NCBI GenBank assembly: GCA_964458565.1
Contig: CAYWJO010000010.1
Coordinates: 20,473 to 84,472 of the forward strand
Origin: an uncultured archaeon
GTDB lineage: Archaea; Asgardarchaeota; Thorarchaeia; Thorarchaeales; Thorarchaeaceae
Reading direction: 5' to 3'
DNA length: 64,000 nt
Shown: positions 17,876-21,752 of the stretch, piece after piece
How the letters are laid out: each line of letters starts with the position of its first letter
Position numbering within the stretch: position 1 is the first letter of the stretch
Notes under the pieces: model-generated
What the model was told of the DNA's origin: nothing
The model's input: the letters and a program-made list of their open reading frames with translations, nothing else
Database searches by the model: none
Translations under genes and position numbers: made by a program

Positions 17876-19555
17876 CTATTCCTCCTCTGATTTCTCAACC
17901 TTGTCTTTAATCTCTTGCAGATGGATCTCGGTTTTCATCTTTATAACATCATCAGCAATCAAATCAGTTTGAATAGTTTCTCTTGCTTTACGATGGCGTC
18001 GCGGAATAGTTTCTGGTTCCCTAGGAGTTGATTCTGAAGTCGTGTCTTCTGAAGTTCTGACGACATCTTGTGTTGAGTCTGCTATAATTGAAATTTCTTC
18101 TAATCCATCTTCTTCATTTGAATCAGTCAAATCCTGAAGAACAGAATCATATTCTCCCTTGATTTCCTCGTCGGACTCGGGGTCAGGTTCTTCTACCGTT
18201 GGGGAATATTCCGCTTCAGGAATTGACTCGGCTAAAGCATCAGTGAGCTCTTCACTAACATGGTGCATACTCCAATTATTGAGCACATCATCAACTGTGT
18301 CCTTGACTTGGGGGCTTAGAACCCCCGAGTTAAAGAGGACTAGGCTTAAACTAGTCAGATGTGTCACTACCTCATCTCCAGAAAGTGCCGCTTCAGTGTG
18401 TCCAGTCAGGGCAGAGTATGCTAGAGCAAGAGATTCTTCCTCACCATCCTCGAAATTCACTTCTAGGAACTGGAACAACCCTAGAAATTTGGACAACCCC
18501 TTATCAGCTGTGAAAGGAGTATCTTTAGGTGGATGTAGTCCAGGGGAGAGACGAACACATTCATCTAAAACAATAGAAGCATAATGTACTGATTCGTTTA
18601 CATCTCCGTTAGAGATAGACTCTACCGAAGCCCCAAAAAGTGTTGGAATAACGAAATTCAATTCATTGATAACATTTAGTTGCTCCTTGTTTTGATGTAC
18701 GGTTTCCTCAATCCGTTTCAAATCACCGATACCAGACAACTGCATAGATTCAGCTTCTCTTGATTCTTTGAAAATCTCAATTTGTCTCTTGGATATATAC
18801 GAAAAATATGCTGTAAGTATAACTGATGCGAGAAGTGTAATTCCAGCAATTGGAATTAGCCATGATTGTTCCAAGATTGCAAATAATATGGAAATAGTAG
18901 CGAGTAAAGTTAGAGAGATTCCTAGTAGTGAATAAAAGCTCATCAGCGTGGCTTTCTGAAGTGAGTCCCATTTCTCTGTATCAATCCCTTGTTTTAATTC
19001 AGGAAGTCTAGAACGAGCATCACTTGAACGAGCAATTGCGAATTCATTTATTGAGAGAATACGGTTCCCCTCGGTAATCCAAGAAAGGTCGTATGATGGA
19101 CGGACATCATTTGTAACAACATATACTGTACGGGTTTCATGAATCAAAGAGGTCTTGTTCTTTTTTAGAGCTGCTTTGCTGGGAGCTAACAGGCGTAATG
19201 GAATTTTACCCCATACGGTCCGAATTGATTTCTCAACGAGTTGATCGTTTAATGATAGCTCATTCATGATTGACTCCAAAGGTCGATTAATGACATCCAG
19301 GACATGGGATTTCATACCTGCAGGACTTTTCCCAAATTTGGCACTTCTAAGATCTAGTACATGTACAACCTCAACATGAACTCCTCTTGTATCAGGAATT
19401 CCAGAGAATCTTATACCTATGCTAATTCCATTCTCCTTTTTTAATGTGTGATGACCACTTCGGTCTAGGATTCGTATGATATCATAGTCCTTGGCAGTTG
19501 TTGTGTCTGTATCTTCTATTTCAGTATGAGTTGTTTTTTCCTCACTCGCAACCAT
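17876..19555 (-). CDS. Membrane protein with central TM hairpin and acidic disordered C-terminus, unknown function
   Basis: Two TM segments at about aa 203-253; E/D-rich tail. Confidence 0.75.
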   Translation of the reverse strand: MVASEEKTTHTEIEDTDTTTAKDYDIIRILDRSGHHTLKKENGISIGIRFSGIPDTRGVHVEVVHVLDLRSAKFGKSPAGMKSHVLDVINRPLESIMNELSLNDQLVEKSIRTVWGKIPLRLLAPSKAALKKNKTSLIHETRTVYVVTNDVRPSYDLSWITEGNRILSINEFAIARSSDARSRLPELKQGIDTEKWDSLQKATLMSFYSLLGISLTLLATISILFAILEQSWLIPIAGITLLASVILTAYFSYISKRQIEIFKESREAESMQLSGIGDLKRIEETVHQNKEQLNVINELNFVIPTLFGASVESISNGDVNESVHYASIVLDECVRLSPGLHPPKDTPFTADKGLSKFLGLFQFLEVNFEDGEEESLALAYSALTGHTEAALSGDEVVTHLTSLSLVLFNSGVLSPQVKDTVDDVLNNWSMHHVSEELTDALAESIPEAEYSPTVEEPDPESDEEIKGEYDSVLQDLTDSNEEDGLEEISIIADSTQDVVRTSEDTTSESTPREPETIPRRHRKARETIQTDLIADDVIKMKTEIHLQEIKDKVEKSEEE

Positions 19556-21752
19556 TTTCTTTCACTCCGGGATTCAGTTTATTCAATCGTTCTTCAATAT
19601 CAAGCAGAAGTCGGTTTGCCATTTCAGATGGTTCCTCAAGACCTCCTACATCAGAAACTGCAGCGATGCAATACAAAAGCCAGCGACTCTGCTCTAAAAG
19701 AGCAACAACATCGCCCAGATGACGGCCAATGCTCTTGCATATATCTTCAAGAGATATATCGGTAGTAGCAGCAGTGAGAAGTGTATTCTCAAATTGCTCA
19801 TCAACAATATATGGACTCTCAAGTGATATGAGATGTTTCAAGAGGGTCAGCAATTCAGAAGTCGTGTTAGTGACCGATAGAAGTGGTAGCATCTCTCGAA
19901 CTGTACTTACCCGTAGATATAATCGGTTCACGACTCTACCCAAATGTGTAGGTTTCATTTTACTGTCATCCGCACCTTCCACTAGAGAGAGACGAATTAG
20001 AGTCATCAGCGGACTCACATCATTCAATGCAAGAGGAATGACATAGTTCGTAAAATTGGGGACTTGTTGTATGGAATGTAGTCCTAAGGCTACTAAATGA
20101 GTACACAATAGTCGATCATGGGAAAATGGTTCACCACAAGAGCACATAGGTCCTTCAATGATACCATTAGTATCGGTTCGTGCAGAGAAGCGACATGTGT
20201 GATGTCCACCTCCTATCGATGTAACAATGCCACCAACAACTGTGTCAGAGGTTTCACGAAGCTTGACTGAACCTAGAACGCCTTCACGTGCCGCTCTGAC
20301 TGTTGCTCCTAACGCATATCTTTCAATCGAGCTTTCTGCAGTAACATCACCTAGATTTATCATTCTCATGGGTGAACGTGTATCACGAACCCCCATATGC
20401 ATTAGAAACGATTCTCCTATCAAGCCTTGTTCAATATCAGTTATACTTCCCTGCTCACAGTAATCTAAAAACACCAGGAGTTGTTCAGCAAGAGCAGTTG
20501 AATCATGAAGAACGCTAATGACAGGCTCATATCGTGGATGCAGTATCTCAGTGTTGGATTCAGGATCTTTGGTAGAAACGAAGTAGGTCTTTTTGACATA
20601 TTCAGCTTCAGCGTAGCTATCAGTAAGAATTATTCCATACCCTTTCTTGTCTTTTCCAGGACGCCCTGCTCTTCCCAACATTTGATGGACATGATTAGCT
20701 GAGAGATACTTCTGATAATCACCAGGAGATCTTGTAGTCGAAATCACAACCGTGCGTGCTGGAAGATCCATACCAGCAGCAAGCGTTGTTGTGGCGCAGA
20801 TGACTCTTACAAGACCGGTTCGGAATAATCGCTCGATCAATCGACGGGAAGATGAATTCAATCCTGCATGATGAAAGGCAACCCCATCATGAAGGAGTGA
20901 GCGCAATTCGGAAGGTATATTGACATTCCAATTTTCAATGGAATCCAAATGCGAATCAAGATCTGTACGCTCCTTTATTGTTAGCTGTTTACTAACATGA
21001 TATGAGAGTTCTACAGCTCCGATTTCTGCCTCTCGACGGGTTCGCATAAATACTACAGCCTGCCCATTTGCTTGAACCGTAGTCATCACAAAATCGCGAA
21101 TCGCCTTCTTTTTGTCTTTGGATGGAAATATCTTAGATACTAATGGAACAGGCCTCTCGTTTGAGTGAATTAGTTCACAATCTAGCCACTCTGCAAGATG
21201 AGCAGGTTCACCTATGGTAGCAGACAGTGCTACTATTTGTAAGTCATCTACTAGACGTCTCAACCGAATGATTGTACCTTCTAGCCTTGGTCCTCGTTCA
21301 GGTTGTGATAGAGTCTGAATTTCATCAATTACTACTGTACCAATTTCAGAAAGCCAAGGAGTTCTATGTCGAAGAAGAGAGTCAGTACGTTCATAGGTTG
21401 TCACAATTATGTCATGGTCACCTAGTTCATCACCCACAGTATGAAAATCGCCAGTGCTGATACCAATTGAAAATCCATGAGGTGTGTATCGTTCCTTGAA
21501 GGTTTCAGCAACTTGTACTGCAAGAGCGCGCAACGGAACCAAATAGAGCCCACGACGCCCATACATGACGGAACGAAGAAGTGCCATTTCTCCAACCATT
21601 GTTTTTCCAGAACCTGTGGGACTACATACCATGATACTTCGGCCATTCAATAGACCCTTGTCCACAGATTCGATTTGAATTCCTCGAGGGCGAATACCCA
21701 CTTGACCCAACAATCTGCCAACCTGAGTGGGTATTTCCTCAGTTGTGATCAA
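19542..21752 (-). CDS. Hel308/Ski2-like SF2 helicase with inserted SWIM Zn finger
   Basis: SPTGSGKT, IDEIQ, LSAT, FHHAGL, TTTLAAGMDLPA, QMLGRAGRPG; CSC-x10-CTH; PTHLGRVVNRLY. Confidence 0.9.
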   Translation of the reverse strand: MITTEEIPTQVGRLLGQVGIRPRGIQIESVDKGLLNGRSIMVCSPTGSGKTMVGEMALLRSVMYGRRGLYLVPLRALAVQVAETFKERYTPHGFSIGISTGDFHTVGDELGDHDIIVTTYERTDSLLRHRTPWLSEIGTVVIDEIQTLSQPERGPRLEGTIIRLRRLVDDLQIVALSATIGEPAHLAEWLDCELIHSNERPVPLVSKIFPSKDKKKAIRDFVMTTVQANGQAVVFMRTRREAEIGAVELSYHVSKQLTIKERTDLDSHLDSIENWNVNIPSELRSLLHDGVAFHHAGLNSSSRRLIERLFRTGLVRVICATTTLAAGMDLPARTVVISTTRSPGDYQKYLSANHVHQMLGRAGRPGKDKKGYGIILTDSYAEAEYVKKTYFVSTKDPESNTEILHPRYEPVISVLHDSTALAEQLLVFLDYCEQGSITDIEQGLIGESFLMHMGVRDTRSPMRMINLGDVTAESSIERYALGATVRAAREGVLGSVKLRETSDTVVGGIVTSIGGGHHTCRFSARTDTNGIIEGPMCSCGEPFSHDRLLCTHLVALGLHSIQQVPNFTNYVIPLALNDVSPLMTLIRLSLVEGADDSKMKPTHLGRVVNRLYLRVSTVREMLPLLSVTNTTSELLTLLKHLISLESPYIVDEQFENTLLTAATTDISLEDICKSIGRHLGDVVALLEQSRWLLYCIAAVSDVGGLEEPSEMANRLLLDIEERLNKLNPGVKENGCE

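Follow-up and report, generated by a model that had tools for sequence, protein, structure and literature searches.

The stretch of DNA considered here, called the window throughout, comprises 64,000 nucleotides from an uncultured archaeon of the Thorarchaeaceae (assembly GCA_964458565.1, contig CAYWJO010000010.1, positions 20,473 to 84,472 of the forward strand). Its minus strand carries a gene for a helicase of the Hel308/Ski2 type in which the winged helix is split by a SWIM-type zinc domain. The protein belongs to a distinct subfamily spread through the Asgard archaea, the closest known relatives of eukaryotes, and its gene lies within a conserved operon together with genes for RadA-family and predicted membrane proteins. 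The gene and the parts of its product are as follows:

19542..21752, minus strand: gene for the SWIM-bearing Hel308-like helicase, from the list of open reading frames (ORFs) and translation; 736 amino acids, TTG start, stop codon included
20553..21752, minus strand: RecA1 and RecA2 motor domains, residues ~1-400, motif coordinates verified by translation
21600-21623, minus strand: motif I, SPTGSGKT, by translation
21315-21326, minus strand: motif II, DEIQ, by translation
20859-20879, minus strand: motif IVa, AFHHAGL, residues 292-298, by translation
20655-20684, minus strand: motif VI, QMLGRAGRPG, by translation
20385..20510, minus strand: N-terminal part of the winged helix (helices 1-2), residues ~415-456, from the secondary structure of the model and alignment with canonical Hel308
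20013..20384, minus strand: SWIM-type insert, residues 457-580, consisting of a linker, two helices, a four-stranded sheet, a zinc knuckle and two helices
20097..20144, minus strand: putative zinc ligands C537, C539, C550 and H552 (CSC-x10-CTH), residues 537-552, CSCGEPFSHDRLLCTH
19947..20012, minus strand: C-terminal part of the winged helix (helix 3 and wing), residues 581-602, aligning with canonical Hel308 LDFLVQGELIE...KAT
19575..19946, minus strand: ratchet domain 4, residues 603-726, with the conserved GD...RW ratchet helix and no domain 5 after it

The plus strand of 19542-21752 is closed by stop codons and the minus strand holds a single ORF of 736 amino acids; an earlier note on this DNA, made from the letters and a list of ORFs, had given the correct positions, and the strand is here corrected to minus. 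The TTG start overlaps the stop of the upstream 777-aa ORF by 4 nt, and the stop is in turn overlapped over 14 nt by the downstream 559-aa ORF.

The set of superfamily 2 (SF2) helicase motifs is complete, with SAT as motif III, and it includes the motif IVa, AF/YHHAGL, of Ski2-like and Hel308-like helicases (PMC10484726). These motifs are invariant in 30 Thorarchaeota orthologs, as are residues H294, H295, A296 and G297 within motif IVa, and they are intact in most class-1 relatives. Pfam detects the DEAD (102 bits) and Helicase_C (44 bits) domains, a sequence comparison with solved structures puts Hel308 first, ahead of the Brr2 and ASCC3 cassettes, and an AlphaFold2 model of the whole protein (predicted local distance difference test, pLDDT, 87.6; predicted template modelling score, pTM, 0.83) finds its best solved matches in Hjm/Hel308, with TM-scores of 0.62-0.75. 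The C-terminal part of the winged helix contains model strands at 591-593 and 599-601, the winged helix/ratchet sequence picks up after the insert at residues 601-612 (PTHLGRVVNRLY), and the GD...RW element aligns with the canonical ratchet helix, where the match to Pfam Helicase_dom4_arc is weak. Identification as a Hel308/Ski2-type helicase, as the earlier note had proposed, is therefore well supported by motifs, model and sequence matches alike. With all ATPase and coupling motifs and the ratchet helix retained, the sequence predicts, as the most likely activity, 3'-to-5' translocation on single-strand DNA in the manner of an active Hel308.

Comparison with the canonical Hel308 of the same genome defines the extent of the insert. 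The canonical protein has 13 residues aligned opposite 128 of the window helicase, which corresponds to a net insertion of about 115 aa, close to the 120 or so first estimated, and the insertion separates helix 2 of the winged helix from helix 3, which precedes the wing. In the whole-protein model the insert forms strands at 495-501, 505-511, 517-526 and 532-537 and then a helix at 551-563, so that the beta-rich segment described earlier is recovered as four strands; its CSC-x10-CTH motif was verified by translation. When modelled separately (pLDDT 86.8) the insert again shows two helices, a four-stranded sheet, a CxC knuckle and a helix running from CxH, and the order of elements is that of a SWIM fold, with strand 532-537 ending at C537 and helix 551-563 beginning at C550/H552.

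The four putative ligands are invariant in the 30 Thorarchaeota orthologs (49-79% identity) and also in distant relatives at 23-39% identity, and a CxC...CxH motif, with spacers of 9-21 residues, occurs in 43/43 of the SWIM-type sequences collected, so that the conservation on which the earlier note had made its proposal depend is found throughout. Fifteen helicases of the canonical Hel308 or another Ski2-like type all lack the motif, and the insert is absent from the canonical copy of the same genome, in agreement with the view that canonical Hel308 has no SWIM domain. Shuffling the window protein generates a CxCxnCxH-type pattern in 0.12% of cases.

Structural comparison of the insert, performed with VIA-align against 48,161 representative solved chains and repeated with the same outcome, ranks the SWIM region of ZSWIM8 first (9RWZ; Z 6.3, 89 residues, root-mean-square deviation 3.6, 19% identity), followed by a next-best match of Z 3.8. 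The alignment spans the helices, sheet, zinc knuckle and following helix of the insert; ZSWIM8 itself is a eukaryotic ubiquitin-ligase substrate receptor of unrelated function, with the domain type alone in common. Beyond the family's own cluster, the nearest neighbours in the ESM Atlas are SWIM or SNF2-associated SWIM clusters (TM-scores 0.53-0.55). Among these, bacterial proteins combining SNF2_assoc, SWIM and SNF2 domains also join SWIM to an SF2 motor (0.53-0.54 over ~90 aa); in them, however, the SWIM domain is N-terminal, ahead of the Snf2 motor, whereas here it is internal to the winged helix of a Ski2/Hel308 motor. The Pfam SWIM family (PF04434) matches 16 of 28 family inserts, no other Pfam family recurring comparably, and a single insert, that of the relative P0053, exceeds the cutoff (21.8 bits against 19.6). 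A profile of the insert yielded only chance-level matches when compared with the sequences of solved structures. We conclude that the insert is a SWIM-type zinc domain, with zinc binding predicted from the sequence and the models.

The window helicase is a second, specialised Hel308-like copy rather than the Hel308 of this genome. The canonical, full-length Hel308, which lacks the insert and is encoded on another contig, scores 617 bits against NF040935 and 845 bits against NF002654, whereas the window protein reaches 295 bits (cutoff 1200) and 370 bits (cutoff 887), respectively, over residues 6-415 only. Relative to archaeal Hel308/Hjm of known structure (2P6R, 2VA8, 2ZJ8), it shares the RecA1-RecA2-winged helix-ratchet arrangement, motifs I-VI together with IVa, and the ratchet helix, but it has the SWIM domain of ~115 aa, is some 28 residues shorter at the beginning of domain 4 and ends just past the ratchet domain. 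A counterpart of the C-terminal helix-hairpin-helix (HhH)/helix-loop-helix domain 5 was absent from 12 of 13 SWIM-type sequences aligned. Canonical and SWIM-type helicases differ in architecture, coexist and form separate clades, and the window protein falls far below the NCBIfam cutoffs.

The separation is also seen in a quick maximum-likelihood tree, built with a short search from columns outside the insert, in which 35 of 36 SWIM-type rows form one clade with a Shimodaira-Hasegawa-like approximate likelihood ratio test (SH-aLRT) value of 99, apart from a clade of canonical Asgard Hel308 (100); eukaryotic sequences were not included and the outgroups lie on long branches. The earlier description of a Hel308 with an insert therefore holds for the Hel308-like character of the protein and not for its place in the family, since it belongs to a separate paralogous clade and the ordinary Hel308 lies elsewhere. 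Similarly, motif II of the window protein does read DEIQ, as had been reported, yet this motif was rejected as a defining feature of the family: the Thorarchaeota clade shares it with a small number of other lineages, and many further SWIM-type lineages have DEIH.

Two further groups were placed by the same quick tree. The Heimdallarchaeota-labelled P0060/L076 is the sole SWIM-type helicase with an HhH domain 5 still present at its C terminus; the tree places it beside a group of ~880-aa helicases and not in the main SWIM clade, and it may be an early-branching or intermediate form. The ~880-aa Ski2-like helicases (L003, G000:C15, in the same genome as the window; L102 and L104-L106) carry an N-terminal extension of ~220 aa and a DExQ motif II, are a weakly supported sister of the SWIM clade (SH-aLRT 88) and may represent the Asgard ASH-Ski2 group.

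SWIM-type helicases are widespread among Asgard archaea. Matches to a profile of the insert were obtained in 230 of 400 Asgard genomes and 53 of 85 genera, including 83 of the 85 genomes of the window's own family, and the source labels of distant members cover Thor-, Loki-, Hel-, Hermod-, Baldr-, Ran- and Heimdallarchaeota, all of them annotated in the databases simply as DEAD/DEAH box helicases. A HMMER search with the C-terminal half against 1.84 billion cluster representatives retrieved just 24 clusters, so that the family is narrow outside the Asgard phylum. Canonical Hel308 is also present in four of five other Asgard genomes checked. The remaining genome (G205, 100% complete), from the largest Asgard family sampled, f22, yielded no detectable canonical Hel308 and the SWIM type alone, and such genomes may explain the reported "absences" of Hel308 in Lokiarchaeota. 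Its SWIM-type helicase (873 aa, L048:8289-10910) has a longer motif spacer, CSC-x20-CDH, and next to it lies a protein of 658 aa that contains an HhH domain and weakly resembles RadA. The most pertinent published survey of Ski2-like helicases in archaea, which dates from 2024 and covered 27 Thorarchaeota and 34 Lokiarchaeota genomes, never mentions SWIM (PMC10946056), and literature searches combining SWIM with Hel308, Asgard or helicase found no mention of the subfamily in the library searched.

Most genomes of the window's family contain two matches to the insert profile. In the second paralog of the window's own genome (738 aa; G000:C19, L047:8658-10874, plus strand; 18.1 bits on Pfam SWIM), and likewise in its relatives from four other genomes, Walker A and motifs II, III and VI are gone while CxC..CxH is retained. 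These ATPase-dead proteins nest within the SWIM clade, and the genes around the second paralog (PRC-barrel, PAC2 and succinyl-CoA ligase) have no connection with DNA repair. The second paralog looks like a pseudo-helicase scaffold, and retention of the ligands without the ATPase suggests that the SWIM domain does something in its own right.

This paralog bears on one explanation for the insert, a purely structural or autoregulatory plug that stabilises or gates the ring of motor, winged helix and ratchet and has no external partner. Domain 5, the autoinhibitory brake of Hel308, is missing here, and the whole-protein model does place the insert confidently relative to the remainder (insert pLDDT 67-92, at the pTM of 0.83 given above). 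In the ATPase-dead paralog, however, the ligands persist where there is nothing to gate, an independently folding zinc domain of ~115 aa is large for a plug, and the strong and ancient synteny with candidate partner genes, described below, points to teamwork. We therefore regard a plug as very unlikely.

The helicase is gene 10 of 15 in an operon that is a conserved, translationally coupled module. In order, genes 1-8 encode two proteins of unknown function, RadA2, a Zn-ribbon protein, another unknown, XPD, a transmembrane protein and a small ORF; genes 9-15 encode the 777-aa transmembrane protein, the helicase, the 559-aa protein, AAAp, a 321-aa transmembrane protein, R51b and a FEN1 paralog. 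The operon and the neighbours that matter most for the argument are:

14532..30168, minus strand: the 15-gene operon with conserved gene order
17876..19555, minus strand: 559-aa protein, no family assigned, with a transmembrane hairpin in mid-protein at 203-252; overlaps the helicase stop by 14 nt
17153..17869, minus strand: AAAp, a short RadA-paralog ATPase with intact Walker A, a RecA fold and weak RadB similarity
15524..16240, minus strand: R51b, a short Rad51/RadB-like paralog (Pfam Rad51 36.8 bits, cutoff 22; TIGR02237 55 bits)

Three metagenomic contigs and the first 20 Thorarchaeota-family genomes show this same operon order, and the gene families could be traced in most of a set of 40 genomes from the family. 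One divergent locus, L061 (G368:C1:1481500-1501499), has a helicase ORF of 975 aa and, within the stretch retrieved, none of the upstream half of the operon (XPD, the 777-aa protein and others); rearrangement or fusion may account for this variant. Orthologs of the 559-aa protein are present in 40 of 41 Thorarchaeota-family operons, that of the window included, and weaker relatives adjoin the helicase in other Asgard families; a feature search of the ESM Atlas with this protein gave no usable match. Transmembrane segments are predicted in four operon proteins, the 321-aa protein (three segments), the 559-aa protein (203-252), the 777-aa protein (43-83) and a 198-aa protein. Homologs in other Asgard families show the same transmembrane patterns, which suggests that the repair-like module is associated with a membrane.

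The presence of two RadA paralogs close to the helicase, noted from the outset, stands on closer inspection: AAAp is a RecA-fold ATPase with Walker A, R51b is a Rad51 relative by its Pfam score, with GKT missing from its alignment consensus and thus no Walker A, and the association is conserved. Outside Thorarchaeota no neighbour accompanies the helicase more often than AAAp, whose homologs there are usually paired with a four-transmembrane protein. Homologs of the 777-aa protein (often split), the Zn-ribbon protein, RadA, the FEN1 paralog and XPD also occur near the helicase in other Asgard families. Overall, a RadA-family gene lies within 10 kb of the SWIM helicase in 10 of the 14 Asgard families sampled, a count in which some misses fall on short contigs and which relatedness tends to inflate; the pattern nevertheless spans deep lineages and differing gene arrangements. 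By chance such a gene would be expected within 10 kb at about 3% of loci, assuming some five RadA-family genes per genome of ~3.5 Mb. The phyletic profile of AAAp across 400 Asgard genomes is uninformative, given that a near-universal ~240-aa paralog also matches (360/400); a gene of this kind in the window's own genome (G000:C25:24264-24926, plus strand) matches the AAAp profile with E = 3e-31.

On balance we favour, with modest confidence, the reading that the window protein is an active Hel308-type translocase whose SWIM domain is a docking platform for partners from a membrane-associated recombination module. An analogy is offered by Mtr4 and Ski2, in which the arch domain serves as a docking platform for partners. 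The arch consists of a helical stalk and a KOW barrel and acts in RNA decay, whereas the insert has a SWIM fold predicted to bind zinc and a DNA-repair context; the Pfam arch domain (PF13234) has no match in the window helicase. The likeness is one at the level of domains, the arch being, like the insert, an accessory domain that interrupts the winged helix of its Ski2-like helicase (PMC10946056). By this analogy the SWIM domain, placed on the winged helix, would tie the motor to one or more partners from the operon module, and helicase activity would be positioned or regulated within a membrane-associated recombination machine. The most likely candidate partner would be the 559-aa membrane protein, followed by a RadA-family protein (RadA2 or AAAp) and then by the others.

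The composition of the insert bears on a second alternative, that the SWIM domain is a nucleic-acid-contacting element that provides a second DNA site, for the branch point or for the displaced or exiting strand, and replaces the lost domain 5, which in Hel308 grips the 3' tail. Domain 5 is lost in nearly all lineages, yet the HhH-retaining Heimdallarchaeota-labelled member also has the SWIM domain. The winged helix of Hel308 participates in DNA binding and translocation (PMC10484726), SWIM domains were first predicted to bind DNA or proteins (cited in PMC5727457), and bacteria fuse SWIM to SNF2 DNA translocases. The insert, on the other hand, is not basic: over 28 members its median net charge is -1 and its median isoelectric point 6.3, exceeding 9 in only two of them. 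Nor does it carry a conserved basic patch, the invariant positions being the zinc ligands and core hydrophobic residues only, with the remaining surface varying by lineage. The near-neutral charge and variable surface fit protein docking better than general DNA binding, if weakly, and we consider a DNA-contacting role doubtful.

As to which proteins would dock, the earlier note had proposed that the fusion may link the helicase physically to the two short RadA paralogs, AAAp and R51b. In its fuller form, on the pattern of the Shu complex, this proposal has the insert bind both paralogs, so that a paralog heterodimer that remodels RadA filaments would be coupled to the helicase. Precedent comes from the yeast Shu complex, where Shu2, through its SWIM domain, is in direct contact with Shu1, a protein of the Rad51 fold (PMC5727457). 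The AAAp-homologous paralog adjoins the SWIM helicase, or sits one or two genes away, in several non-Thorarchaeota Asgard families, and the frequency of RadA-family genes within 10 kb has been given above. R51b, however, was detected solely in Thorarchaeota-family operons, apart from one weaker relative in family f3, and the ATPase-dead second paralog keeps its SWIM domain without a nearby RadA gene. Moreover, the closest structural relatives of the insert are generic SWIM domains, of ZSWIM8 and of bacterial SNF2-associated proteins, and not Shu2.

Covariation of rates between the insert and the operon proteins was explored over 20-26 operons by partial Mantel tests in which the remaining operon proteins served as background. 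The partial r was highest for RadA2 (0.42) and the 559-aa protein (0.38); AAAp showed a small residual value (0.23), and none was seen for R51b (-0.11), the 777-aa protein (-0.09) or the 321-aa protein (-0.16). RadA2 and the 559-aa protein thus covary with the insert more strongly than do the short paralogs. Prediction of complexes between the insert and each short paralog, from alignment inputs and without controls, gave 0.00 in both runs, below the mark, and was counted neither way. We consider joint binding of the two short paralogs unlikely; the membrane proteins and full-length RadA2 are equally good or better candidates, and the support for a link between the helicase and RadA-family proteins is conserved synteny.

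Several observations weigh against the docking reading that we favour. The loss of domain 5 could mean that the insert replaces a DNA-contacting element rather than providing a protein-docking one. No repair genes are found near some SWIM-type helicases, namely the f28 loci, the second Thorarchaeota paralog and several f22 loci. Partial Mantel tests over-call on related genomes, so that the covariation ranking is a lead only, and the measure is fragile, as a run on nine genomes gave a different order before it was superseded by that on 20-26. For the SWIM assignment itself, a Z of 6.3 counts as modest when judged by the calibration of VIA-align, a Foldseek search of the insert model against solved structures gave nothing at E <= 0.001 and placed ZSWIM8 at rank 42, and zinc binding is predicted solely from sequence and fold. 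The Pfam SWIM search that the earlier note had suggested left the window protein unmatched, whole or in fragments, at E values up to 10, and its outcome is thus mixed, with the matches to other family inserts, one of them above the cutoff, on the positive side.

The parallels with eukaryotic recombination proteins extend to two systems. HELQ, the metazoan helicase of the Hel308 family, is functionally linked to the BCDX2 complex of RAD51 paralogs and is not known to have a SWIM domain; the association seen here is one of gene neighbourhood. Shu2/SWS1 combine a CxCxnCxH SWIM domain with Rad51-fold paralogs in recombination, much as the SWIM gene described here is syntenic with RadA paralogs, but they are small stand-alone proteins with no helicase, in contrast to an internal insert of a 736-aa helicase. 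Shu2/SWS1 chains were not in either VIA-align list for the insert, and their absence says little because Shu2 has a 59-residue insertion inside the motif. A stronger proposal, that the SWIM helicase and the adjacent RadA-family proteins form a physical complex in Asgard archaea, strikes us as distinctly improbable. Such a complex would be a prokaryotic forerunner of the Shu (SWS1-SWSAP1) and HELQ-RAD51 paralog pairs, which eukaryotes keep on separate proteins, and would work inside a membrane-anchored DNA-processing machine of an undescribed kind.

Among the regulators of recombination, Hel308/HELQ helicases and Rad51 paralogs hold a central place and are still poorly understood. What is new here is the definition of a widespread Asgard helicase subfamily with SWIM in the winged helix and domain 5 lost, and its structural novelty, a sister paralog that has lost catalysis and retained the SWIM domain, and a set of conserved candidate partners (RadA2, the short RadA paralogs, XPD, FEN1 and membrane proteins) make it useful for experiment. 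The subfamily offers a testable route to how a helicase couples to recombinase paralogs, and it bears on a possible archaeal root of the eukaryotic SWIM-paralog and HELQ-paralog links.

Assignment of the locus to a known anti-phage defence system, such as Hachiman with HamB, was considered and rejected: PADLOC matches the motor core of the helicase only, and for nine neighbours no defence model matched apart from one weak partial match. The synteny and near-universal presence of the locus in the family were also noted against a defence system.

Just past the operon in other Thorarchaeota lies a gene for a giant protein of 1,300-2,600 aa, alpha-2-macroglobulin-like, with prenyltransferase-toroid, MG2 and Big domains. 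None was seen in the stretch of the window that adjoins the operon. The gene was located at L009:20190-22208, L010:20058-22190, L011:20950-22193, L012:14278-22068 and L052:11005-14961; in one lineage it lies within the operon, and in family f4 it is directly beside the SWIM helicase.

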